Shown here: in pieces, positions 5,669 to 63,963 of the stretch
Numbering within the stretch: the first letter of the stretch is position 1
Layout: each line of letters opens with the position of its first letter
Origin: an uncultured Gammaproteobacteria bacterium
Lineage (GTDB): Bacteria > Patescibacteriota > Patescibacteriia > Patescibacteriales > GWC2-42-12
Length of the DNA: 64,000 bases
Assembly: GCA_964560005.1 (NCBI GenBank)
Contig: CAZLKB010000002.1
Location: 381-64,380 of the forward strand
Direction of reading: 5' to 3'
The notes under the pieces: model-generated
Databases searched by the model: none
Told to the model about the DNA's origin: nothing
What the model saw: only the letters and a program-made list of their open reading frames with translations
Translations under genes and position numbers: made by a program

Positions 5669-6715
5669 ATGAACAATCAAAAACCGCAATTTTATTTTTT
5701 ATTGTTATTACTGGCCATGACTTTAGTGCTGTCGTATTTCATATTGAGGCCGTTCCTTGTCGCCTTTACCCTAGCCATCGTTTTCGCAGTTTTATTTCAG
5801 CCGCTCTACCGAAAAATTTTTAAGTATTCTTTTAAGCGCGAACCGCTGGCGGCGCTGGCGACGATTATGGTAATTTTATTTCTTATTTTCACGCCTTTGA
5901 TGATCATCGGCTTTCAGATATTTAAAGAGTCCAGAGATTTGTACTTTACCGTCGCCGCCGGAGGCGGGGGAGACAGCTTCTTGGTTTCCTTGAATTACTT
6001 GGCTGAGAGCCTTCATAAGAGTTTCCCGGCTATACCGGAATTTTCTTTAAATTTTGATTTATACCTTAAGCAGGGCTTAAGCTGGATGGTGGCCAATCTG
6101 GGCACGATATTCTCCAATGTCGCCAATCTGATGTTCACGGTTTTTTTATTTTTCATCTCTTTGTATTATTTGCTAAAAGACGGGCCCAGGCTAAGGAAAA
6201 AAATTATCGCCTTAAGCCCGCTGAATGACCGGGACGATGAAATTATCATAAAAAAGCTGGAAATGGCCATGAGCTCTGTGGTTAGGGGAAATTTTTTAAT
6301 CGCTATTATCCAGGGAACATTGACCGCCATCGGCTTCGCCATTTTCGGCGTGCCGAATTTCGTGCTCTGGGGCACGGCCGCGACCGTGGCCTCTCTGATT
6401 CCCAATGTCGGTACCTCGCTGGTTTTTATTCCGGCAATATTCTTATTATTGTTCGGCGGGCACTTTATCACCGCCATCGGGCTGACCATCTGGGGAATTT
6501 TGGCGGTCGGGCTGGTTGATAATCTGCTCGGTCCGAGGCTAATCGGCCGAGGCATGCAGCTTCACCCGCTTTTGATTCTCTTTTCGGTTTTGGGCGGACT
6601 GGGCTTTTTCGGGCCGATCGGCCTGCTCTTGGGCCCGATTATCTTAAGCCTGCTGTTTGTCTTATGGGACATTTTTTCCTTGTGCTATGAATGCAAAAAT
6701 GAGCGATTAGAATAA
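5669..6715 (+). CDS. AI-2E family transporter (PerM/UPF0118-like)
   Basis: 348-aa polytopic membrane ORF with the family-typical layout and the motif LLGPRLIG...LHPL. Confidence 0.75.
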   Translation: MNNQKPQFYFLLLLLAMTLVLSYFILRPFLVAFTLAIVFAVLFQPLYRKIFKYSFKREPLAALATIMVILFLIFTPLMIIGFQIFKESRDLYFTVAAGGGGDSFLVSLNYLAESLHKSFPAIPEFSLNFDLYLKQGLSWMVANLGTIFSNVANLMFTVFLFFISLYYLLKDGPRLRKKIIALSPLNDRDDEIIIKKLEMAMSSVVRGNFLIAIIQGTLTAIGFAIFGVPNFVLWGTAATVASLIPNVGTSLVFIPAIFLLLFGGHFITAIGLTIWGILAVGLVDNLLGPRLIGRGMQLHPLLILFSVLGGLGFFGPIGLLLGPIILSLLFVLWDIFSLCYECKNERLE

Positions 6716-6731
6716 TTTATTTATAACAATT

Positions 6732-8258
6732 ATGCCCAGTTTTAAAAAAATTGTTTTGCCGGGCGTGGTTTTTTTAACCGGCGGCTGCGTCTTAGTTTTA
6801 GAAGTGGTGGCAACCCGAGTTCTATCACCGTATTTCGGCAATACTATCTATACGGTTTCCAGCATTATCGGCGTGATTCTCATGGCTTTAAGCCTGGGCT
6901 ATTATTTCGGCGGCCGATTGGCGGATAGGCGGCCGTCTTCCAGCTGGTTTTTTAGCATAATTTTAATTAGCGGCTTGACCGTGATTTGCCTGGAATTAAT
7001 TATTATTTTTCTTTTGCCGATAATGGGCAATGCTCTTTCATTAATGTACGGCCCGTTAATCACGGCCTTTATCTTATTTTTTTTGCCGGCGCTTCTACTG
7101 GGCACGCTTTCTCCTTACGCTATCAAATTGCAGAATCAAAAATTTCCGGCCTTAGGCATCGGCGCCGTTAGCGGAACTATATTTTTTTGGTCAACCTTGG
7201 GCAGTATCGCCGGCAGCCTGCTCACCGGTTTTGTCTTTATCCCTTACTTCGGCGTTGACAAAATAATCATCGGCGTTGGCTTCTTACTGATCTTGATCGG
7301 ATTAATTCCACTAGCTAAAAACGGCGTTAAATTAAAGAGTTTTTTTCTAATTTTGGCCGTTTTATTTTTTGTCAGCGCTGAATTGCTTATTTTATTGCTC
7401 GTCTGGCGGATTCAACCTGATAATTTGGTCTACTCGCAAGACGGCGTTTATGAAAAACTATTAATTTTTGACGGCGAATATAACGGCCGTCCGGCCAGAT
7501 TTTTTCAGCAAGACCGGAGCCATTCGGCCGCCATGTTTCTCGGCAGCGACGATTTGGTCTATGACTATACGAAATATTACGCTCTATATAAAGTCATTAA
7601 TCCTGAAGCTAAGGCCGCTTTGGTAATCGGCGGCGGCGCGTACTCAATTCCAAAAGCCTTGCTTAAAGAACCGGAGTTGGAAACCGTGGATGTGGCCGAG
7701 ATTGAGCCGTCGCTTTACGGGTTAGGCAAAAAATATTTCCGTGTGCCAGAAGATAGCCGGCTCAAAAATCATGTTGTGGACGGGCGCCGATTTTTGTTTG
7801 AAGCCGATAAAAAATACGATTTAATTTTTAGCGATGTTTATTATTCTTTTTATTCCGTGCCCGTGCATTTTACCACCGAAGAATTCTTTAAATTAGCTAA
7901 AAGCAAATTGAGCGATAGAGGCATTTTTATGGCTAATTTAATCGGTAATCTGGATAGCCGGCCTCCCTCGCTTATTTTTTCGGAAATTAAAACCCTAAGA
8001 GCGGTTTTTCCAAACTGTTATTTTTTCGCGGTGAATTCGCCCGACCTAAAGCATTCACAAAATATTATTTTCGTGGGATTAAATAATAACAAAAAAATAG
8101 ATTTCGGCGATAAATTGATTAGCGATAATCCGGATAAAATTATCAGCCGGGCCGGCGGTAAATTAGTTGATTTGAGCAATATTGATTTTAGCCAATACAC
8201 CGAGTTAACCGATAACTACGCGCCGGTAGAATATTTAACCGCTAAAGTTTTAAATTAA
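6732..8258 (+). CDS. fused membrane domain / spermidine-synthase-like methyltransferase
   Basis: 508 aa; N-terminal ~7 TM helices, C-terminal VIGGGAYSIPK and DLIFSDVY SAM-fold motifs. Confidence 0.7.
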   Translation: MPSFKKIVLPGVVFLTGGCVLVLEVVATRVLSPYFGNTIYTVSSIIGVILMALSLGYYFGGRLADRRPSSSWFFSIILISGLTVICLELIIIFLLPIMGNALSLMYGPLITAFILFFLPALLLGTLSPYAIKLQNQKFPALGIGAVSGTIFFWSTLGSIAGSLLTGFVFIPYFGVDKIIIGVGFLLILIGLIPLAKNGVKLKSFFLILAVLFFVSAELLILLLVWRIQPDNLVYSQDGVYEKLLIFDGEYNGRPARFFQQDRSHSAAMFLGSDDLVYDYTKYYALYKVINPEAKAALVIGGGAYSIPKALLKEPELETVDVAEIEPSLYGLGKKYFRVPEDSRLKNHVVDGRRFLFEADKKYDLIFSDVYYSFYSVPVHFTTEEFFKLAKSKLSDRGIFMANLIGNLDSRPPSLIFSEIKTLRAVFPNCYFFAVNSPDLKHSQNIIFVGLNNNKKIDFGDKLISDNPDKIISRAGGKLVDLSNIDFSQYTELTDNYAPVEYLTAKVLN

Positions 8259-19083: not shown

Positions 19084-19575
19084 ATGTCAATATTCGGTAA
19101 GAAAACTGAAGATAAGGCAAAAGCTGCGGCTAAACCGGAGCCGGTTAAGGGTGGAAAAGCGCCTGCCACGGAAGAAAAGAAAACCCAAAGCATGAAAGAT
19201 TTGTACAGTACTCCCGCAGTTGCATCTTCGGCGAAACTCGGAACCAGCAAATCTAAAGATGTAAAAAAAGGAGAAGTCAGGGCGTCTTACGGCAACGCTT
19301 ATCGGATTTTAGTTAAGCCATTAGTTACGGAAAAAGTCAGTAATTTGGGAGTTTTAAATAAATATGTTTTTGCCGTGGCGCCCGAAGCCAATAAAATAGA
19401 GATCGCCAAAGCCGTTAAAGAAGTTTATGGCATTAAACCTGTTGGCGTTAATATTATTAATCGGCTCGGCAAGAAAGCGCGCTACGGCCGAATCAGCGGT
19501 TGGCGGAAAGATTGGAAGAAAGCCATAGTTACCTTGCCGAAAGGCCAAACCATTAAGATTTATGAAGGCGTATAA
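19084..19575 (+). CDS. rplW: 50S ribosomal protein uL23 (about 65-aa Lys/Ala-rich N-terminal extension)
   Basis: core ILVKPLVTEKVSN...YVFAVAPEANKIEIAKAVKEVYG...KKAIVTL. Confidence 0.92.
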   Translation: MSIFGKKTEDKAKAAAKPEPVKGGKAPATEEKKTQSMKDLYSTPAVASSAKLGTSKSKDVKKGEVRASYGNAYRILVKPLVTEKVSNLGVLNKYVFAVAPEANKIEIAKAVKEVYGIKPVGVNIINRLGKKARYGRISGWRKDWKKAIVTLPKGQTIKIYEGV

Positions 19576-19678
19576 TATGAAGTAAGAAGTATGAAGTGAG
19601 AAGTAAAATTAAAATTTTTAAAAAGATTGTTCGGCCGTATTTTCTAACTTCTAACTTCTTACTTCTAAACTAATTAAT
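19576..19678. repeat. palindromic spacer, gaagtaagaagt family
   Basis: gaagtaagaagtatgaagtgagaagtaaaa versus ttttctaacttctaacttcttacttc. Confidence 0.8.
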
Positions 19679-20512: not shown

Positions 20513-20606
20513 ACAAGAAGTTGAAAGTTATAAAGTTTATAAAGTTATAAAGTAGATGAATTTAACTTTACAAACTATCAACTTTATAACTTTATAACTA
20601 ATTTAT
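20513..20606. repeat. palindromic spacer, ataaagtt family
   Basis: gttgaaagttataaagtttataaagttataaagt versus actttacaaactatcaactttataactttataac. Confidence 0.85.
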
Positions 20607-21635: not shown

Positions 21636-21735
21636 CAAGTAAAAAGTTATAAAGTTCATAAAGTTTGTAAAGTTATAAATTAAAAAATAGGCTACTTTCA
21701 ACTTTATAAACTTTCAAACTTTATAACTAATTTAT
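21636..21735. repeat. palindromic spacer, ataaagtt family
   Basis: aaagttataaagttcataaagtttgtaaagttataaa versus tactttcaactttataaactttcaaactttataac. Confidence 0.85.
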
Positions 21736-22425
21736 ATGGGACATAAAGTAAATCCAAAGGTTTTCAGACTGAATATTACCAGGACCTGGCCGTCCAGGTG
21801 GTTTGCTACTGGGCAAACCATGATCAGCAATTTAAAACAAGATGTTAATTTGAAAAAATATTTATTTACCGAATTGCGCGAGGCCGGGGTAGATAGGATT
21901 GAAATTGATAGAAGCGGCCACAAGGTTACTATCGGCATCTTTACGGCCAAGCCCGGAATACTAATCGGCCGCGGCGGCAGCGGCGCCGGTGATTTAAAAA
22001 AGAAATTGCATGATAAATTTTTAAAGAATTTTAAATTAGGCGATATAAATTTGAATATTACCGAATTTGACCGGCCCAATTTATCCAGCAACATTATCGC
22101 CGGCGCCATGGCGATTGATATTGAAAAGAGGATGCCTTTTAGAAGAGTAATGAAGCAGGCGATTAACCGCATTGAAAGAGCCGGCGCCTTAGGGGTAAAG
22201 GTGATTATCAGCGGCCGGCTGAATGGCGCGGAAATCGCCAGAACGGAAATGCTGACTTCGGGTAAAGTGCCGTTGCATACTTTAAGAGCCGATATAGATT
22301 TTGCCAAAGCCACGGCCAAAACCACCTATGGCACCATCGGAATAAAATTATGGATATATAAAGGCGATGTCTTTAAAAAAGAAAGCGAAACCGCCAAGGG
22401 GGAAGTAGTAGGAGAGAAGAAATAA
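21736..22425 (+). CDS. rpsC: 30S ribosomal protein uS3
   Basis: MGHKVNPKVFRL, KPGILIGRGG (KH domain) and ISGRLNGAEIAR motifs. Confidence 0.96.
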   Translation: MGHKVNPKVFRLNITRTWPSRWFATGQTMISNLKQDVNLKKYLFTELREAGVDRIEIDRSGHKVTIGIFTAKPGILIGRGGSGAGDLKKKLHDKFLKNFKLGDINLNITEFDRPNLSSNIIAGAMAIDIEKRMPFRRVMKQAINRIERAGALGVKVIISGRLNGAEIARTEMLTSGKVPLHTLRADIDFAKATAKTTYGTIGIKLWIYKGDVFKKESETAKGEVVGEKK

Positions 22426-22504
22426 GAGTTATAAAGTTCATAAAGTTATAAAGTTAAAAGTAAATTCTGATAACTTTATAAACTTTATAACTTTCAACTA
22501 ATAT
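22426..22504. repeat. palindromic spacer, ataaagtt family
   Basis: gagttataaagttcataaagttataaagtt versus aactttataaactttataactttcaac. Confidence 0.85.
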
Positions 22505-25259: not shown

Positions 25260-25431
25260 TACAATGTAAAATATAAGTTTTAAAATTACCAGGTAAAATT
25301 TTCAATTTTCAATTCTCAATTTTCAAACAATTTTCAATGACTAAATTTTCAATGAAATACAAATAACTGTTTGAAAATTATAACATTAAATCATTGTTTA
25401 GAAATTGAAAATTAGAAATTATAAATTATCT
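25260..25431. repeat. palindromic spacer, ttttcaat family
   Basis: aaaattttcaattttcaattctcaattttcaaacaattttcaatgac is near-identical to 30020-30075; right arm ttgaaaattagaaatt. Confidence 0.85.
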
Positions 25432-26395: not shown

Positions 26396-26492
26396 GGCCT
26401 CGCAACTTGTAACTCGCAACTCATAACTCAAAATGCAATAATATAATTTGGGTTACGGGTTATGAGTTACGAGTTATGAGATGTAAGATTCT
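26396..26492. repeat. palindromic spacer, aactcgcaactcataac family
   Basis: cgcaacttgtaactcgcaactcataactc versus gggttacgggttatgagttacgagttatgag. Confidence 0.8.
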
Positions 26493-26846: not shown

Positions 26847-27010
26847 ACTTCACAAATCTACAAATTAGCTCACGAATATTACAAATAAGATAAATTATAA
26901 TAAAATAATTTGTAAATTTGTGAATTAATTTGTTGATTTGTGAATAATTATAAGGGAAATAAGAAAGATAAAAAATTAAATATCATCCGATTAAATACAA
27001 TTACATAAAT
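26847..27010. repeat. palindromic spacer, tacaaat family
   Basis: cacaaatctacaaattagctcacgaatattacaaata versus atttgtaaatttgtgaattaatttgttgatttgtga. Confidence 0.8.
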
Positions 27011-27736: not shown

Positions 27737-27903
27737 ATAATAGATTATAATAAATATAGAATTAATTTTTAATTTTCAATTACTAATTTTCAATGAATTT
27801 TCAATGATTAAATTTTCAAATTATTAAACAGCATTCCCGTTTGAAAATTAATTCATTAATTCATTGATCATTGTTTGAAAATTGAAAATTGAGAATTATT
27901 TTT
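27737..27903. repeat. palindromic spacer, ttttcaat family, at the position where rpmD (uL30) would normally sit
   Basis: aattttcaattactaattttcaatgaattttcaatgattaaattttcaa versus ttgaaaattgaaaattgagaatt; no ORF. Confidence 0.85.
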
Positions 27904-28347
27904 ATGTCTTTATCCTTGCATACAATCAAACCAGCCACAGGTTCTTCAAGACGAAAGAAACGAGTCGGGCGAGGCAATGCTTCCGGCCACGGTTCTTATA
28001 GTACTCGCGGAATCAAAGGCCAAAGATCAAGAACCGGAGGTAAAAATAAACTAAAAAGATTAGGCTTTAAAAAGATTTTAGCGCAGACGCCGAAGAACAG
28101 GGGTTTTAAGTCCGATAAACCGAGAAATCAGGTGGTTAATTTAGAAGATATTAATAAATTTTTCGCCGACGGCGCCGCGATTAATGCCATGACTTTGCTG
28201 AAAGCCGATTTAATCAATACTGTCAGCGAGCCGATAAAGATTTTGGGACAAGGGGAATTAAAGCTTAAAAATTTAGAATTTACCGGGGTTAAGTTAAGCG
28301 ACAGCGCTAAGGCGCAGGTGGAAAAGTTGGGTGGAAAGATAAGTTAG
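27904..28347 (+). CDS. rplO: 50S ribosomal protein uL15
   Basis: GRGNASGHG...RGIKGQRSRTGG motifs. Confidence 0.93.
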   Translation: MSLSLHTIKPATGSSRRKKRVGRGNASGHGSYSTRGIKGQRSRTGGKNKLKRLGFKKILAQTPKNRGFKSDKPRNQVVNLEDINKFFADGAAINAMTLLKADLINTVSEPIKILGQGELKLKNLEFTGVKLSDSAKAQVEKLGGKIS

Positions 28348-28401
28348 AATTTAGAAGTAAGAAGTAAGAAGCAACAAATTTATTAATTGATAATCAAATT
28401 T

Positions 28402-28665
28402 ATGGTTAATAAATTAGAAGAAATAAAAATAAGTATTGGAGAAGAATCTAGAAAAAATGAAAAAAGAGTTGATATGGCTAGAGTTACAGAAATTAATAAA
28501 GCTTCAGTAGAATTGTTTGATGCATTAAAACAGCATGTATCATCTTTAACTGAAGCTGAGGCCGATATTTTAACAAAAAGATTGACTCATGAATTTGAGG
28601 ATTATTTAGCGATTCTGTTAAGAATAAGAAAAGCGGCGTTTGAGAGAAGAAAAGAACATGAATAA
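28402..28665 (+). CDS. hypothetical helical protein (87 aa) between rplO and secY
   Basis: ORF only. Confidence 0.35.
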   Translation: MVNKLEEIKISIGEESRKNEKRVDMARVTEINKASVELFDALKQHVSSLTEAEADILTKRLTHEFEDYLAILLRIRKAAFERRKEHE

Positions 28666-28743: not shown

Positions 28744-30015
28744 ATGATGGAAAAATTAATCCAAATTTGGAAAGCGCGCGATTTAAGGAATAGCATTCTG
28801 TTCGTTTTGGCTATGCTGGCGATTTTTCGCGTGGCCGCTCATATTCCCGTCCCCGGCGTTGACACGGTGGCCTTAAAAGATTTTTTCGCTTCAAATCAAA
28901 TTTTAGGATTAATGAATATTTTCGCTGGCGGGGGCATGGAAAATTTTTCCATAGTCATGATGGGCGTAGGCCCCTACATCACTTCTTCAATCATTTTTCA
29001 GCTCTTAGCCATGATTATTCCCAAGCTGGAAGAAATGAATAAAGAAGAAGCCGGCCGCCAAAAAGTCAATATGTGGACCCGCTGGCTGACCGTTCCTCTA
29101 GCCGCCCTGGAAGCTTACGGCATGATTACCCTGCTTAGGCGTTCATCCCATCTGATTTTAGGCGATATTGATGCCATGAGCTTAATTACCATGATTATTA
29201 CGATATCCGCCGGCACCATATTTTTAATGTGGCTGGGCGAGCTGATGACGGAAAAGAAAGTCGGCAACGGTATATCCTTATTGATTTTTGCCGGCATCGT
29301 CGCCGGTCTCTTACAGACCGTACAGCAAGTCGCGGTTACTTTTGACCCATCTAAGCTCTATATGATTTTAGGTTTTATAGCTATTGCCCTAATTACCATA
29401 GTCGGCGTAGTGGTAATAAACGAAGGCCAGCGCAATGTGCCGGTGCAATACGCCAGGCAAATCAGGGGCAACCGCATGTTCGGCGGCACCTCAACGCATT
29501 TGCCTTTAAGGGTGAATATGGCCGGAGTGATTCCGATTATTTTCGCTATTTCGGTAGTTATCTTTCCCCCCATGATTGCCCAGTTTTTTGTTAACGCGCG
29601 AACCGAATTTTTAGCCAAAGCGGCCGCTTGGACCATCGGCTTTTTCCAAAATCAACTAGTCTATGCAATCTTGTACTTCTTGCTGGTTTTTGCTTTTACT
29701 TATTTTTATACCGAAGTCATTTTCCACCCCACCCAGATCGCTGAAAATCTGCAAAAGCAGGGCGGTTTTATTCCCGGCATCAGGCCGGGCCGGCATACCA
29801 GCGAATATTTAGCCAATACCACGCATAAAATCATTTTCGTCGGCGCTTTATTTTTAGGCCTGATCGCCATTCTGCCTCTGATTTTAAGATATTTCACCGG
29901 CATGCAATTTTTAACCATCGGCGGAACTTCGCTGTTAATCGTGGTCTCGGTGGTAATTGAAACAGTTAAGCAGATTGAATCGCAGCTAACCATGCGGGAG
30001 TATGAGGGAATGTAA
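28744..30015 (+). CDS. secY: preprotein translocase subunit SecY
   Basis: 423-aa 10-TM ORF; LGLMNIFAGG, GVGPYITSSIIFQLL and FIPGIRPG motifs. Confidence 0.96.
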   Translation: MMEKLIQIWKARDLRNSILFVLAMLAIFRVAAHIPVPGVDTVALKDFFASNQILGLMNIFAGGGMENFSIVMMGVGPYITSSIIFQLLAMIIPKLEEMNKEEAGRQKVNMWTRWLTVPLAALEAYGMITLLRRSSHLILGDIDAMSLITMIITISAGTIFLMWLGELMTEKKVGNGISLLIFAGIVAGLLQTVQQVAVTFDPSKLYMILGFIAIALITIVGVVVINEGQRNVPVQYARQIRGNRMFGGTSTHLPLRVNMAGVIPIIFAISVVIFPPMIAQFFVNARTEFLAKAAAWTIGFFQNQLVYAILYFLLVFAFTYFYTEVIFHPTQIAENLQKQGGFIPGIRPGRHTSEYLANTTHKIIFVGALFLGLIAILPLILRYFTGMQFLTIGGTSLLIVVSVVIETVKQIESQLTMREYEGM

Positions 30016-30080
30016 GCTAAAAATTTTCAATTTCTAATTTTCAATTTTCAAACAATTTTCAATGACTTAATTTTCAAACA
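30016..30080. repeat. half element, ttttcaat family
   Basis: aaaattttcaatttctaattttcaattttcaaacaattttcaatgacttaattttcaa. Confidence 0.8.
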
Positions 30081-33236: not shown

Positions 33237-33647
33237 ATGAATTATCTCGGCATAGATTGGGGAGAAAAAAGAATTGGCCTGGCCTTGGCTGACGGCGAAA
33301 CTAAAATCGCCACGCCTTTTAAAGTGGCGGCAAATGTGGCAGAAGTGCTGAAAGCGGCGGCAGAGGAAGAAATAGACGTGGTGGTGCTAGGCAAGCCGTC
33401 TTCAATTACGAATAATCAATTACAAATTACGAATGAAAAATACAATAAATTTATTGACGAATTGATGAGTAAGGTGAAAGTACCCGTTGAATTGGTTGAT
33501 GAGCGTTTGTCTAGCAAGGCGGCCGATGCTTTAATCGGCACTAAAAAAATTTACCCGCCGAAGCCTAGGCGAAGGCGGGCCAAGGCTTCTCGCGACGAAA
33601 TCGCGGCTATGCTGATTTTACAAAGTTATTTGGATAGAAAAATATAA
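33237..33647 (+). CDS. ruvX: Holliday junction resolvase-like RuvX/YqgF
   Basis: MNYLGIDWGEKRIGLALAD, DERLSS and AAMLILQSYLD motifs; the track start at 33156 lies in the repeat. Confidence 0.85.
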   Translation: MNYLGIDWGEKRIGLALADGETKIATPFKVAANVAEVLKAAAEEEIDVVVLGKPSSITNNQLQITNEKYNKFIDELMSKVKVPVELVDERLSSKAADALIGTKKIYPPKPRRRRAKASRDEIAAMLILQSYLDRKI

Positions 33648-33770
33648 TTCAAATACTACAAATGCAAGGCAAATACTACAAACATGTTTTAACGGGGGCG
33701 AAGAATATCGGCAAAACAGTTAATTTTGTAGTATTTGGATATTATTCGTAGTATTTGAATTATATCTATT
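33648..33770. repeat. palindromic spacer, tactacaaat family
   Basis: ttcaaatactacaaatgcaaggcaaatactacaaa versus tttgtagtatttggatattattcgtagtatttgaa. Confidence 0.8.
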
Positions 33771-38630: not shown

Positions 38631-38770
38631 CTAATATCTACAAATTACAAATCTTATACAAATTTACAAATAAATACAATGTAATTCCGCGCCCGCATAA
38701 TATAGTAATTTATTTGGAGGTTAAGAATATGTAAATTTGTACAAAATTTGTAATTTGTAGACCTAAAATT
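38631..38770. repeat. palindromic spacer, tacaaat family (arms about 33 nt, near perfect)
   Basis: tctacaaattacaaatcttatacaaatttacaaat versus atgtaaatttgtacaaaatttgtaatttgtagac. Confidence 0.9.
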
Positions 38771-40289: not shown

Positions 40290-40442
40290 CCAGCCTGATA
40301 GAGCTTTTATCTTTCTCGCTTAAGACAAAATTTGGGCATTTTTTTAAAAAATATTTTTATTATTATTTAATTAAGTAATATTTTTTTAAAAAATAGCTAC
40401 AATTTTGTATGCGCTCAAAAGAAAAAAACTCTATCAGGCTGG
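40290..40442. repeat. conserved-core / variable-stem hairpin element, copy A
   Basis: outer stem ccagcctgatagag / ctctatcaggctgg; core ...tctcgcttaagacaaaatttgggcattttttt ... agctacaattttgtatgcgctcaaaag. Confidence 0.85.
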
Positions 40443-45573: not shown

Positions 45574-45667
45574 TAATTTTCAATCTTCGGTTTACAATTT
45601 TCAAAATTATGCTACTGGATGAGTTTTCATTGAAAATTGAAAATTGAAAATTGAAAATTTTTTATTT
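45574..45667. repeat. palindromic spacer, ttttcaat family
   Basis: tacaattttcaaaatt ... ttttcattgaaaattgaaaattgaaaattgaaaatt. Confidence 0.75.
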
Positions 45668-47088: not shown

Positions 47089-47226
47089 CAGTCGGAGAGA
47101 AGTTGATTTTTCGCTTAGACGAAATTTCGGTATTTTTTACTAAAATTATAATAAGTTGAGCCTGGATAATTTTAGTAAAAAATAATACAATTTCGCATGC
47201 GCTCAAAATTAACTTCCCTCCGACTG
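47089..47226. repeat. conserved-core / variable-stem hairpin element, copy B
   Basis: outer stem cagtcggagagaagtt / aacttccctccgactg; core tttttcgcttagacgaaatttcggtatttttt ... aataatacaatttcgcatgcgctcaaaatt. Confidence 0.85.
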
Positions 47227-47240
47227 ACCGGCGCTCTTAT

Positions 47241-47311
47241 GGGGGAATAGTTCAGTGGTAGAATGCTGGTCTCCAAAACCAGTGATGAGGGTTCGATTCC
47301 TTCTTCCCCTG
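47241..47311 (+). tRNA. tRNA-Trp (anticodon CCA)
   Basis: acceptor GGGGGAA/TTCCCCT (G1.U72), anticodon stem CTGGT/ACCAG, loop CTCCAAA, T-loop TTCGATT. Confidence 0.88.
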
Positions 47312-48721: not shown

Positions 48722-48747
48722 TAAGTCTACATTATCGTAGACTTAAG
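48722..48747. promoter_or_regulatory. candidate operator palindrome 1 (GTCTAC-N6-GTAGAC core)
   Basis: ttaagtctac attatc gtagacttaa, perfect 10-bp arms. Confidence 0.5.
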
Positions 48748-48757
48748 TTTAAGGGTA

Positions 48758-48799
48758 ATATGACTTTAGTCTACGGATATGTAGACTAAAGTCATATTT
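48758..48799. promoter_or_regulatory. candidate operator palindrome 2
   Basis: aatatgactttagtctac ggatat gtagactaaagtcatatt, perfect 18-bp arms. Confidence 0.5.
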
Positions 48800-48827
48800 A
48801 TCACTTTTTATATTAAAGTCCACAATA

Positions 48828-48837
48828 GTCTAGACTT
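48828..48837. promoter_or_regulatory. candidate operator half-size palindrome 3
   Basis: agtctagact. Confidence 0.3.
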
Positions 48838-48879
48838 AAATTACATATTAATTTTTACATATTATTATAAAGAAATCAA

Positions 48880-48975
48880 GGGGCAAAACTCATAATTTGT
48901 AACTCATAACCCATAGCTCATAACTCACAACTCAAAGATTCAATCAATAACGAGTTAATGAGTTGCGAGACTTTC
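48880..48975. repeat. palindromic element, aactcataac family
   Basis: aactcataatttgtaactcataacccatagctcataactcacaactc versus aacgagttaatgagttgcgag. Confidence 0.75.
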
Positions 48976-50927: not shown

Positions 50928-51259
50928 CTCGTTTTTTTAAATTCTATGTTCCGGGTTCGTCCCGGAATTATGTCTCGCGATTGATCGTTGCGGGATACCA
51001 AGCAAATCAGCAAGCTAACCCCCCACACTTGTGAAAACAAGCAGGGGAGGAGAATTTCCCATGCTCACGGCAAAGTCCGTGTAATAAATTTTCCCCCGAT
51101 TAATAATTCAGAATTACGAATTACGAATTAAATTCGAAAATCGAAATTCTAAATTCGAAATTGTTTCCACGGGTGTGGGGGAGGCGGGATTCCGGTTGAT
51201 TTGCTTGCCTCGTCGTAGCTTTTAGCGAAGGCGGGCTTAAACATAATTTAAAAAACGAG
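50928..51259 (+). promoter_or_regulatory. GC-rich nested-helix structured region upstream of the surface-protein gene (candidate long 5' leader or ncRNA)
   Basis: ctcgttttttt/aaaaaacgag closing pair; ttccggg-ttcg-tcccggaa hairpin; caagcaaatca+ccccccacac pairing with gtgtggggg+tgatttgcttg. Confidence 0.4.
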
Positions 51260-54999: not shown

Positions 55000-55038
55000 T
55001 TTAAACTTTAAAAGGTTTAATTAGACCTAGATTAAGAA

Positions 55039-55075
55039 GCCCCCCGCCACAATGTGGCGGGGGGCTTTGAGTTTT
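55039..55075 (+). terminator. rho-independent terminator after the surface-protein gene
   Basis: gccccccgcca caatg tggcggggggc tttgagttttt. Confidence 0.7.
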
Positions 55076-55102
55076 TGACACGGTTTTTATTTATGATATA
55101 AT
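55075..55102 (+). promoter_or_regulatory. candidate promoter (TTGACA-N16-TGaTATAAT) embedded in a 50-bp palindrome
   Basis: ttgacacggtttttatttat gatataatat ataaataaaaatcgtgtcaa. Confidence 0.4.
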
Positions 55103-55164
55103 ATATAAATAAAAATCGTGTCAAAAAGTATCTGGCAAATAATAAAATTAAATAATAATAAATT

Positions 55165-59044: not shown

Positions 59045-59130
59045 GGCCGCGTAACCTATAACTCATAATTCATAGCTCATAACTCATATCTAAAACACAC
59101 TCATCAGCTGTAGTTGTTTTAATAAAAAAA

Positions 59131-61457: not shown

Positions 61458-61578
61458 GTCTAGCGGGGTTGTAGATTCTTCGCTCCGGACGAAATTTGGG
61501 CATTTTTTAAAATTAATAAGATAATTTTAAAAAATGCTACAATTTCGTAGTCGCTTAAAATCTACAACCCCGCTAGAC
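61458..61578. repeat. conserved-core / variable-stem hairpin element, copy C
   Basis: perfect 19-bp outer stem gtctagcggggttgtagat / atctacaaccccgctagac; core tcttcgctccggacgaaatttgggcatttttt ... gctacaatttcgtagtcgcttaaa. Confidence 0.9.
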
Positions 61579-61639: not shown

Positions 61640-62545
61640 ATGTCAAAATGCCTAGTCACCGGTGGAGCCGGATTTATCGGCTCTAATTTAGTCGATGAAT
61701 TGATAATACAGGGCGATGAGGTTGTTATTATTGATAATTTAACGACCGGTAAAAAAGAATATATAAACCCTAAAGCCAAATTTCATAAAGCCGATATCAG
61801 AGATTTAGAAAAAATTAAGCCCTTATTTAAGGGAGTAGATTATGTTTTTCATCTAGCCGCCTTTCCCCGAGTTCAACCGTCGATTGAAGACCCGGCCACG
61901 GCTAACGATATTAATTTGAACGGGACCCTAAATGTTTTATTGGCGGCGCGCGACGCTAAGGTTAAAAAAGTAATTTACAGCGCTTCCTCTTCGGCCTATG
62001 GCGACCAAACCAAGATGCCTTTAACCGAAGATATGCCGGCTCACGCTTTAAGCCCTTATGGCCTGCAAAAATATGTCGGTGAATTGTATTGCCGGCTGTT
62101 TTCCGATATTTACGGCTTAGCCACGGTTAGTTTAAGATATTTTAATATTTATGGGAAACGCCAGGCCTTAGAAGGAGCTTACTGCCTGGTCATGGGATTA
62201 TTCGTCAATCAAAGATTAAAAAATCAGCCCATGACTATAACCGGCGACGGCACCAACCGCCGTGATTATACCTCGGTGATTGACGCTGTTAGAGCCAATG
62301 TTTTGGCCGCTAAAAGCGATAAAGTCGGGAAAGGGGAGGTAATAAATATCGGCCGCGGCAGTAACTATAGTGTCAATGAGTTGGCTGAAATGATCGGCGG
62401 TTCGACTGTTTATATTGAGCCGAGGATTGAGCCTAAAGAAACTTTAGCGGATCATGCTTTAGCTAAAAAACTTTTGGGCTGGGAACCAACGATTAATTTA
62501 CCCGAATGGCTGGAGGGCTATAAAAAGGAAATGGGGCTTAAATGA
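61640..62545 (+). CDS. NAD-dependent epimerase/dehydratase (UDP-sugar 4-epimerase-like SDR)
   Basis: [18 protein letters not shown] and YGLQK (YxxxK) motifs. Confidence 0.85.
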   Translation: MSKCLVTGGAGFIGSNLVDELIIQGDEVVIIDNLTTGKKEYINPKAKFHKADIRDLEKIKPLFKGVDYVFHLAAFPRVQPSIEDPATANDINLNGTLNVLLAARDAKVKKVIYSASSSAYGDQTKMPLTEDMPAHALSPYGLQKYVGELYCRLFSDIYGLATVSLRYFNIYGKRQALEGAYCLVMGLFVNQRLKNQPMTITGDGTNRRDYTSVIDAVRANVLAAKSDKVGKGEVINIGRGSNYSVNELAEMIGGSTVYIEPRIEPKETLADHALAKKLLGWEPTINLPEWLEGYKKEMGLK

Positions 62546-62588
62546 ATTACGAATTAAGAATTATGAATTAAGAATAAATATCAAATTT

Positions 62589-62810
62589 ATGATTAAGAAA
62601 AATATTAAAGTAATTTTTGAAAATGGCGATAACAAGAGAACCGAAGAAATGATTGGCGGTATACCTTTATCAAAGGGTGAAATTCTACATATTCACGAGG
62701 GCAATAAAGTGGTTCAATATGAAGTTGTCGATAAAATGGTTGATATTTTTCTTAATAATGATGACGAAATTGTTAATATCACTTACATAATTAAGAAAAA
62801 ATCTCTTTAA
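62589..62810 (+). CDS. hypothetical protein (73 aa)
   Basis: ORF only. Confidence 0.35.
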
Positions 62811-63816: not shown

Positions 63817-63963
63817 AATTTCTTGTGCAGAGTATTTATTTTTCACTCAAGATGAAATTTGGGTATTTTTTCTTAAAATTGTGATAAATTGGGCATGGAT
63901 AATTTTAAGAAAAAATAATACAATTTCATATTCGCTCAAAATAAATACCCTGCACAAGAAATT
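63817..63963. repeat. conserved-core / variable-stem hairpin element, copy D
   Basis: outer stem aatttcttgtgcagagtatttatt / aataaataccctgcacaagaaatt; core tttttcactcaagatgaaatttgggtatttttt ... aataatacaatttcatattcgctcaaaat. Confidence 0.85.

Follow-up and report, generated by a model that had tools for sequence, protein, structure and literature searches.

Imperfect intergenic palindromes of 100–160 bp include the Correia elements (CREE/NEMIS) of Neisseria, ERIC/IRU of enterobacteria and RUP/BOX of pneumococcus. Repeats of this type are co-transcribed, fold in mRNA and can hold promoter-like boxes; their terminal inverted repeats are conserved, they are flanked by a TA or a short target duplication, and their arms show no covariation. 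Correia elements occur in two size classes (~105 and 155 bp), which differ by an internal segment. Rickettsia palindromic elements (RPEs) are hairpin repeats of 100–150 nt in reduced genomes that differ in presence or absence among relatives and often insert in frame within protein-coding genes; we know of no transposase for them. The palindromes of the REP/BIME/REPIN class are non-coding and extragenic, present many times per genome and mostly at gene 3′ ends; they form a long hairpin in single-stranded DNA (ssDNA) or mRNA, leave no target-site duplication, are inherited vertically over long periods with turnover, and are mobilised by RAYT (TnpA_REP) Y1 transposases, whose single-copy gene is usually flanked by the repeats. 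Compensatory changes along the long hairpin have been described for REPINs (PMC3116915). Here, a hairpin element was analysed that is present in four copies in a 64,000-nt stretch of Patescibacteria DNA (contig CAZLKB010000002.1; hereafter the window, on whose numbering, with the + strand read, its positions are given). We interpret the four copies, with moderate confidence, as members of a dispersed non-coding palindromic repeat family resembling REPINs, BIMEs and miniature inverted-repeat transposable elements (MITEs), in which the whole hairpin is the unit and is recognised via its loops.

This likeness to the REP/REPIN/MITE class is drawn because the element occurs in many copies, between genes and at their 3′ ends, appears and disappears whole, is more similar within genomes than between them and is, in some copies, retained for long. 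With REP/BIME/REPIN palindromes it further shares the non-coding, long hairpin, the lack of target-site duplication and long vertical inheritance with turnover. The element departs from the class in its interior, non-complementary invariant loops, in its termini of free sequence and fixed length, and in that no duplication or partner was found. A REPIN has invariant 16-mers with a GTAG-type REP at both ends and a variable spacer, whereas no inverted conserved REPs (for example, GTAG) occur at the ends of this hairpin, which are its most variable parts, and the invariant segments are two interior loops; moreover, no RAYT/HUH gene was found near the copies examined, and there is no cloud of identical copies. 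Like the Correia-type repeats, the element is an intergenic palindrome with size classes set by an internal segment and with promoter-like boxes, yet its termini are unconserved, no duplication was found and covariation is pervasive. Like the RPEs, it is a hairpin repeat of reduced genomes with presence/absence differences, but it is strictly intergenic and has no sequence similarity to them.

Architecture and covariation of the hairpin

A sequence-only reading of the window had listed four hairpin copies with a shared left and right core, and had proposed a covariance model as a check. All four were confirmed on the + strand (copies A to D, at 40290-40442, 47089-47226, 61458-61578 and 63817-63963, respectively). 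The left-core and right-core patterns each match exactly these four sites of the window (0.18 and 0.32 matches, respectively, expected by chance; four matches in none of 100 shuffles). The covariance model, searched against the whole window with filters off, returned only the four copies at 91–107 bits, the next-best match being an unrelated hairpin at 30 bits.

Two scans extended the family beyond the window. An exact right-core search of one genome per species yielded 59 loci with ~28 true copies, which fall in seven Patescibacteria metagenome-assembled genomes (MAGs): Parcubacteria GW2011_GWC2_42_12, two ‘E14', two Falkowbacteria and two ‘Patescibacteria group'. An independent metagenome search with the left core gave at least 120 loci. 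Over the loci of both scans, covariance model R1 found 72 full-length matches, representing 64 distinct sequences. Each core is kept in copies that were retrieved via the other core only; for example, ATGCGCTC of the right core is almost invariant in the 39 copies retrieved via the left core. As far as sampled, the family is confined to a Falkowbacteria/Parcubacteria-type clade of Patescibacteria. Among viral contigs of IMG/VR, the right-core pattern had no match and the left-core pattern three, none of which fits the model, and a phage origin was accordingly rejected. With Rfam 15 at gathering thresholds, tRNAs alone passed in the whole window, and a permissive scan of copy A gave generic miRNA-precursor hairpins as best match (40 bits, against thresholds of at least 80 bits); known RNA families, including the known self-cleaving ribozymes, were thus rejected. 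The element was not found described in the literature on hairpins, palindromes, terminators or structured RNAs of Patescibacteria or the candidate phyla radiation, so that, as far as literature and Rfam show, the family is previously undescribed.

From the outside inwards, the hairpin consists of helix P1, internal loop 1, helix P2, internal loop 2, helix P3 and a variable tip. P1 forms two helical turns with near-perfect pairing and is 23 bp long in the model and 23–25 bp with its extension. Its length is fixed, since complementarity runs only 1–2 bases past the modelled end; an inverted duplication of flanking target DNA was rejected as the origin of the stem because complementarity stops within 2 nt of P1. 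Loop 1, with TCGCTTA(A)G of the + strand opposite ATGCGCTC, is asymmetric and nearly invariant, and is made up of a small 2x2 mismatch, a 2-bp GC/GC mini-helix and a 4–5 x 4 loop. It is followed by P2 (8 bp), the 3x3 loop 2 (TGG opposite TAC) and the A/T-rich P3 (10 bp). Copies range overall from 102 to 165 nt, and the differences reside in the tip, from which result the short (~105 nt) and long (~140 nt) forms: 32 copies are short (102–111 nt), 7 intermediate (117–132 nt), 21 long (138–147 nt) and 4 extra-long (162–165 nt).

Across the 64 distinct copies, 94.6% of pair cells hold standard pairs, compared with 34.5–51.2% in slid controls whose partners were shifted by 1–3 columns. Two-sided changes were found in 34 of the 43 pairs (574 cells), all 23 pairs of P1 covary, and none of the covariation measures was matched in any of 500 shuffles; a smaller hand-made alignment gave the same picture. 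Pairing is almost purely Watson–Crick, with G.U making up only 1–3% of pairs. The proposed hairpin in which pairing is kept while the stem sequence is free was therefore borne out, and the long hairpin with compensatory changes is a feature held in common with REPINs. The conservation of mutually non-complementary internal-loop segments, as described from four copies, was likewise supported. The terminal columns are the least conserved (columns 1–10 of alignment A3; consensus frequency ~0.3–0.7), which, together with the failure to find a target-site duplication, agrees with the earlier view that the termini are the opposite of those of a classical MITE. This covariation, although very strong, cannot distinguish RNA from ssDNA, or one strand from the other.

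In copy A (long form, 153 nt; model score 90.7 bits), the 5′ arm of P1 (40290..40313) pairs with the 3′ arm (40419..40442) at 22 of 24 positions. Its left core (40314..40344) carries the 5′ strand of loop 1 (TCGCTTAAGA), the 5′ arm of P2 (ACAAAATT), TGG of loop 2 and the start of P3, and its right core (40389..40418) the end of P3, TAC of loop 2, the 3′ arm of P2 (AATTTTGT) and the 3′ strand of loop 1 (ATGCGCTC). Copy B (long form, 138 nt; 103 bits) has P1 arms at 47089-47108 and 47207-47226 (18 of 20 paired) and cores at 47109-47138 and 47177-47206. In copy C (intermediate form, 121 nt; 106.7 bits), the arms at 61458-61477 and 61559-61578 pair throughout (20 of 20), with cores at 61478-61508 and 61529-61558, while copy D (long form, 147 nt; 106.6 bits) has arms at 63817-63840 and 63940-63963 (23 of 24) and cores at 63841-63871 and 63910-63939. 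All of these features are on the + strand.

The outer arms had been called always self-complementary, which holds nearly but not strictly, as the arms quoted for copies B and D contain one + strand A.C mismatch each. Their description as completely different is true inside the window; across the 64 copies, P1 instead grades into a common family consensus (TGCCGGACAAAGAT...), with TGCCGGACAAAGATnTTnG... common to many P1s from different genomes, others diverging stepwise, and conservation highest in the part adjoining the core. The compensatory change of the inner A/T helix between copies B and D was as described, and the core helix also covaries among the window copies (CGAAATT/AATTTCG in B and C, CAAAATT/AATTTTG in A and TGAAATT/AATTTCA in D).

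Certain copies carry an extra hairpin-forming insert of 19–42 nt in loop 1, on the left or right strand, which converts the loop into a three-way junction (L003 5046-5236, L052 3305-3432, L003 2432-2574, L015 4685-4827, L105 1755-1899 and L183 8176-8317). Between two such inserts, the differences seem to be compensated (CCGA..UCGG versus CUGA..UCAG). On inspection, a small conserved open reading frame (ORF) in the core was rejected, since the ATG of GTATGCGCTC is missing in copy C and in L046 and the frame downstream of the ATG enters the variable P1. K-turn, sarcin-ricin and dif-like readings of the loops were likewise rejected, by inspection only, as none matches a consensus.

Gain, loss and exchange of copies

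The operon of UDP-glucose dehydrogenase (UDPG-DH), epimerase, UXS and glycosyltransferase genes was retrieved from seven relatives. Between UDPG-DH and epimerase (the C site), where the window has copy C, the hairpin is absent from the 11-nt spacers of JAUSEG01 and JAQTVB01, the 26-nt spacer of MFFW01, the 19-nt spacer of the Ga0172369 contig and the 23-nt spacer of a contig whose epimerase is 92% identical to that of the window; L184 and L185 hold hairpin sequences unrelated to the element. After UXS (the D site), UXS overlaps the next gene in JAUSEG01 and in an LCCP-like contig, JAQTVB01 (L187) has a 36-nt spacer with no element by the model, and the site in MFFW01 is occupied by a diverged member of the family, whose right loop contains an insert of 34 nt. 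The empty-site comparison that the sequence-only reading had recommended thus identified five relatives lacking the element at the C site and three at the D site. The reverse case also occurs: L081 has an element, and the window none, between the orthologues of 27889-28347 and 28744-30015, and in L025 an element directly follows a canonical terminator where the window is without one. Core-less P1-type hairpins were not found among the element-bearing loci. As the empty sites are without a hairpin, the whole element including its stem must be gained or lost as a unit, which refutes the earlier suggestion of a core inserting into pre-existing terminator hairpins; P1 is, in addition, homologous across copies. 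These whole-unit gains and losses take place in intergenic spacers, mostly by gene 3′ ends and also inside operons.

Other families of long hairpins fill the C and D spacers of relatives (L184 ~5826-5995 and ~6912-7128; L186 5939-6082 and ~7060-7110; L183 6905-7215). One of these spacer families has the conserved ends TGTCATTGCGAG...CTCGCAATGACA, and another occurs as a full and a half copy. Spacers that hold small ORFs in the window also differ in relatives: that of a 73-aa ORF (62589-62810; no Pfam hit on record) is 5 nt in JAUSEG01, and that of a 92-aa ORF (28387-28665) holds a family member in L081. Both ORFs look like lineage-specific insertions.

Some copies reside at one locus for long. 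Copy B is orthologous to L001:684-787 (JAUSEG010000005), both being located between rpmG and tRNA-Trp, with protein identities of 64–88% for the seven surrounding genes, and the two copies have the same unusual P1 (GTCGGAG), in which differences are compensated. Further orthologous pairs are L002/L022:4741, L175/L019 and L157/L114:10309, where the proteins of both flanks are 72–88% identical. For example, five P1 positions differ between L002 and L022:4741, and all five are compensated. Orthologous copies thus covary in P1 as well, while the loops remain constant. With at least five double substitutions in one stem between orthologues, and with clean filled and empty sites within one conserved operon, the family offers an unusually clean natural experiment in compensatory evolution.

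Copies from one genome are nevertheless more alike than copies from different genomes, both in the core (identity 0.829 within versus 0.792 between; permutation P≤0.001) and in P1 (0.59 versus 0.52; permutation P≤0.001). Copies of GW2011_GWC2_42_12 mostly have TTAAGA with the P3 start GCGA/TCGC, and those of E14_maxbin.173 mostly TTAGA with GTAT/ATAC, which holds even at the orthologous locus L002/L022:4741. In addition, the tip of copy B is long, like that of copy D, while that of its L001 orthologue is short; since P1, but not the tip, is common to these orthologues, exchange of the inner part is possible. L082 (27-132) joins the left flank and left half of the L002 copy (6782-6887) to the right half and right flank of another copy, and results either from a related strain in which two copies recombined or from a chimeric assembly induced by the repeat. 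Within-genome likeness, genome signatures, the tip swap and L082 therefore argue for exchange between copies or lineage-specific amplification.

Close strain variants with precise insertion boundaries were sought, and only sample SRR12133404 has identical proteins. This sample (Logan) provides the only other assembly of the window genome, and its contig L180 breaks inside copy D (L180 3778-3837). As L180 ends there, the repeats evidently fragment short-read assemblies, and the chimeric join that they may create in L082 adds to their relevance for MAG quality.

The ends and flanks were also inspected for marks of known classes. Flanking direct repeats are no commoner than in shuffled pairs, giving no target-site duplication, and a small excess of flanking 4-mers arises because termini such as GGCC are self-complementary. 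The ends are variable, and conserved terminal inverted repeats of the MITE type are absent from them. Neither in the window nor in ~1.2 Mb of loci does a copy hold a gene between its two cores. No U-tract was found within 25 nt on either side, where T or A fractions are 0.2–0.5 without runs and the flanks are unconserved. Like an intrinsic terminator, the element is a stable hairpin shortly past a stop codon; unlike one, it has no U-tract on either strand, and some copies lie inside operons whose genes abut in relatives. An intrinsic terminator was thus rejected. Elsewhere in the window there are canonical terminators that are GC-rich and have T-runs.

Orientation, strand and competing explanations

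Gene context was counted with ORFs filtered by a simple coding-potential score. Both neighbours are co-oriented with the + form in 21 copies and opposite in 4, while 10 copies have convergent and 2 divergent neighbours. In tandem contexts, orientation is therefore co-directional at 21:4 (binomial P=0.0009), and in 41 of 49 cases the gene upstream points the same way. In the window, the earlier statement that the copies lie just 3′ of + strand genes was upheld, as all four begin 11–31 nt past a + strand stop codon. GC skew is positive throughout the + strand of the window and nearly all genes are on it, so transcription and replication orientation are inseparable here. Three copies, two of them orthologous, end 11–15 nt before a co-oriented tRNA gene, which is tRNA-Trp twice and tRNA-Ala once (window 47226-47241; L001 672-684; L168 674-690).

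While the orientation counts indicate that the co-transcribed strand is usually the + strand, several measures favour the − strand. In P1 columns 3–23, mismatches that are G.U-compatible on the − strand (A.C on +) outnumber the reverse by 42:18 (P=0.003), and the asymmetry is spread across many copies and columns. Within the GC mini-helix, one pair is A.C on the + strand in 17 copies, and in 3 it is A-U. The more stable fold is that of the − strand in 46 of the 64 copies, by a mean of 2.6 kcal mol−1, and the RNAalifold consensus is −59.4 kcal mol−1 for the − strand versus −51.5 kcal mol−1 for the + strand. The L003/L052 insert of loop 1 reads CACUCGC-GAAA-GCGGGUG on the − strand, whereas on the + strand it contains a C.A mismatch and its loop is UUUC. 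In L030, the GC-rich tip requires two G.U pairs on the − strand. On inspection only, tandem G.A/A.G pairs are possible beside the GC mini-helix in loop 1 of the − strand, while loop 2 appears more pairable on the + strand (G.A, G.U). Composition-based mutation bias would be expected to favour + strand G.U, the opposite of what was observed. The asymmetry could have arisen if folding of the − strand is selected for, but also through strand-biased template-switch correction or if G.T mismatches are repaired in a DNA hairpin of the + strand; as it has these other possible causes and conflicts with gene orientation, it was not used to fix the strand.

Under the preferred reading of a mobile palindromic repeat, a trans-acting protein would recognise the folded single strand via the conserved loops, the stems needing only to pair. 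This recognition is the most economical mechanism, whether the protein then copies or converts the element, as preferred here, or acts on it within mRNAs. In the preferred case it would cause the family to be copied or homogenised without a target duplication being left behind, and the inserted hairpin would be co-transcribed and tolerated, or sometimes useful, as a non-terminating hairpin of 3′-untranslated regions (3′-UTRs) or intercistronic mRNA. Should there be a cognate protein, its recognition site is defined by the conserved asymmetric loops, which would open a way into the biology of mobile DNA or RNA processing in a phylum that is uncultivated. The sequence-only reading had proposed a structured RNA or a protein-binding DNA hairpin; the covarying stems and frozen loops agree with this, while unit gain and loss and within-genome similarity fit a mobile repeat at least as well.

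Several observations weigh against a mobile repeat. No cognate enzyme was found: the ten genes between repeat pairs are all housekeeping genes with no transposase among them, and a crude HUH...Y motif screen of ORFs in element-bearing loci found nothing. Nearly identical copies at different loci are absent, which gives no indication of recent bursts, and a conserved interior with variable termini is the reverse of REPINs and MITEs. The constancy of loops between orthologues in genomes of ~75% protein identity could equally result from purifying selection on a functional RNA. Finally, the strand evidence is in conflict, with gene orientation pointing to the + strand and wobble asymmetry and folding energy to the − strand.

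A possible, if less probable, explanation is that the hairpin is a cis-acting RNA element of the host, located in 3′-UTRs or intercistronic mRNA, whose loops are bound by an RNA-binding protein or an RNase. It might act as a barrier to 3′-exonucleases, as do E. coli REPs, or offer an RNase III-type site in P1, in either case tuning the stability of the flanking cistrons. The near-constant placement of copies by a gene 3′ end with 21:4 co-orientation speaks for such a role, as do the nearly invariant loops of orthologues whose stems covary and the near-perfect two-turn P1. Loop-1 inserts that create a three-way junction, one with a GAAA tetraloop, are as seen in evolving structured RNAs, and the lack of a U-tract would permit read-through inside operons. 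However, the operon works without the element in five relatives, where genes abut or overlap, so that the element is not needed at the C and D sites. By wobble asymmetry and folding energies, the favoured strand is antisense to the usual neighbouring gene, a G.U content of 1–3% is unusually low for a selected RNA helix, and core signatures that are specific to a genome even at orthologous loci speak for homogenisation over simple conservation in place.

More speculative, and in our estimate improbable, is the idea that the hairpin is the substrate of an undescribed hairpin-specific DNA or RNA enzyme of Patescibacteria that reads a pseudo-symmetric loop, or that RNA of the − strand constitutes, by itself, a catalytic or processing motif of a new kind. 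The internal loop is pseudo-symmetric in that CGCU stands opposite CGCU on one strand and AGCG opposite AGCG, flanked by tandem G.A, on the other. The enzyme would act on whole hairpins, copying or converting them with neither target duplication nor conserved termini. If true, either version would explain the frozen loops, the drifting 23-bp stems of fixed length and the homogenisation within genomes.

It is unlikely that the element serves as an ssDNA site, comparable to attC, the attP hairpin of CTX phage or a single-strand initiation site or ssDNA promoter, in which one DNA strand would fold as replication proceeds and serve a recombinase, primase or RNA polymerase. The bias in orientation could follow replication, given the positive skew on the gene-rich + strand; the almost pure Watson–Crick pairing is DNA-like; and the strand asymmetry of G.T versus A.C mismatches is compatible with DNA. 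The L003/L052 insert also contains d(GCGAAAGC), a very stable DNA mini-hairpin. As with attC, the element lies 3′ of genes in a preferred orientation, keeps structure far more than sequence, has unpaired spacers and a variable terminal structure or tip, and folds best as the complement of the coding strand. Unlike attC, it shows neither the R′′ (RYYYAAC) nor the R′ (GTTRRRY) consensus at the ends of alignment A3 (inspection), no integrase was found nearby, and its copies are dispersed among syntenic core or housekeeping genes rather than in cassette arrays. Moreover, the better-folding strand is the expected leading-strand template, which is rarely single-stranded, and both orientations occur on one contig of uniform gene direction (L001, L182:20662; JAUSEG010000005).

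Very unlikely is a portable promoter, or terminator plus promoter, in which TACAAT of the right core serves as −10 box and drives the downstream gene, for example tRNA-Trp after copy B, with a −35-like TTG that short forms would take from the left core (TTGGGC) and long forms from the tip (TTGAAT/CTGGAT). Of the 64 copies, 55 have TACAAT; several of the long forms show TTGAAT-N18-19-TACAAT, and several of the short ones TTGGGC-N16-19; a promoter scan flags TGGATA-17-TACAAT in copy B; and the three copies upstream of tRNA genes fit such a function. Yet only 26 of the 64 copies have a TTG at 16–20 nt, nine have other hexamers (six with G or A at position 1, namely GACAAT or AACAAT, two TACGAT and one not resolved), ~10–18 copies face a convergent gene, and the covarying 23-bp stems would be left unexplained. 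That a small mobile core entered the loops of pre-existing terminator hairpins, the outer stems being local sequence, is hardly credible: the wealth of other long intergenic hairpins in the window and relatives and the shared P1 but different tips (long versus short) of copy B and L001 are in its favour, but orthologous empty sites lack any hairpin, P1 has a family consensus and a fixed length with no U-tract after it, and element-bearing loci hold no P1-type hairpin without a core.

Neighbouring genes and other hairpins of the window

Copy A is preceded by a tRNA_edit/YbaK-like gene (stop 40279) and followed by scpA (start 40469). Copy B lies between rpmG (stop ~47058) and tRNA-Trp (47241), copy C between a UDP-glucose dehydrogenase-like gene (stop 61443) and an epimerase gene (start 61640), and copy D starts 30 nt past the stop (63787) of a UXS-like gene. 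Patescibacteria genomes are very small and tightly packed, and this clade still tolerates a dozen or more hairpins of ~100–165 nt per genome, with several other hairpin families occupying the same intergenic spacers as the element.

Many other spacers of the window hold long hairpins composed of 3–5 tandem 7–8-mers followed by the inverted array (19575-19669, 20524-20599, 21643-21726, 22422-22494, 25297-25428, 26399-26485, 26850-26943, 33641-33766, 38639-38753, 45578-45659 and 51107-51162). Their units, such as GAAGTAA, AAAGTTAT, AATTTTC and CTCGCAA, belong to sequence families separate from the element. Solo heptamer arrays of 4–7 copies are found directly past stop codons at 28341-28371, 30022-30051, 48887-48934, 59058-59088 and 62544-62575, and in JAQTVB01 the epimerase gene is followed by a comparable run of octamers (L187 ~5905-5945). 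At 48722-48838, a 117-nt nested hairpin rich in GTCTAC/GTAGAC is the best model match outside the family (29.6 bits). A canonical GC-rich terminator with a T-run (55036-55068) is followed by a perfect AT-rich palindrome (55072-55127), in which a 12/12 sigma-70 promoter, TTGACA-16-TATAAT with an extended TG, is embedded at 55075-55102.

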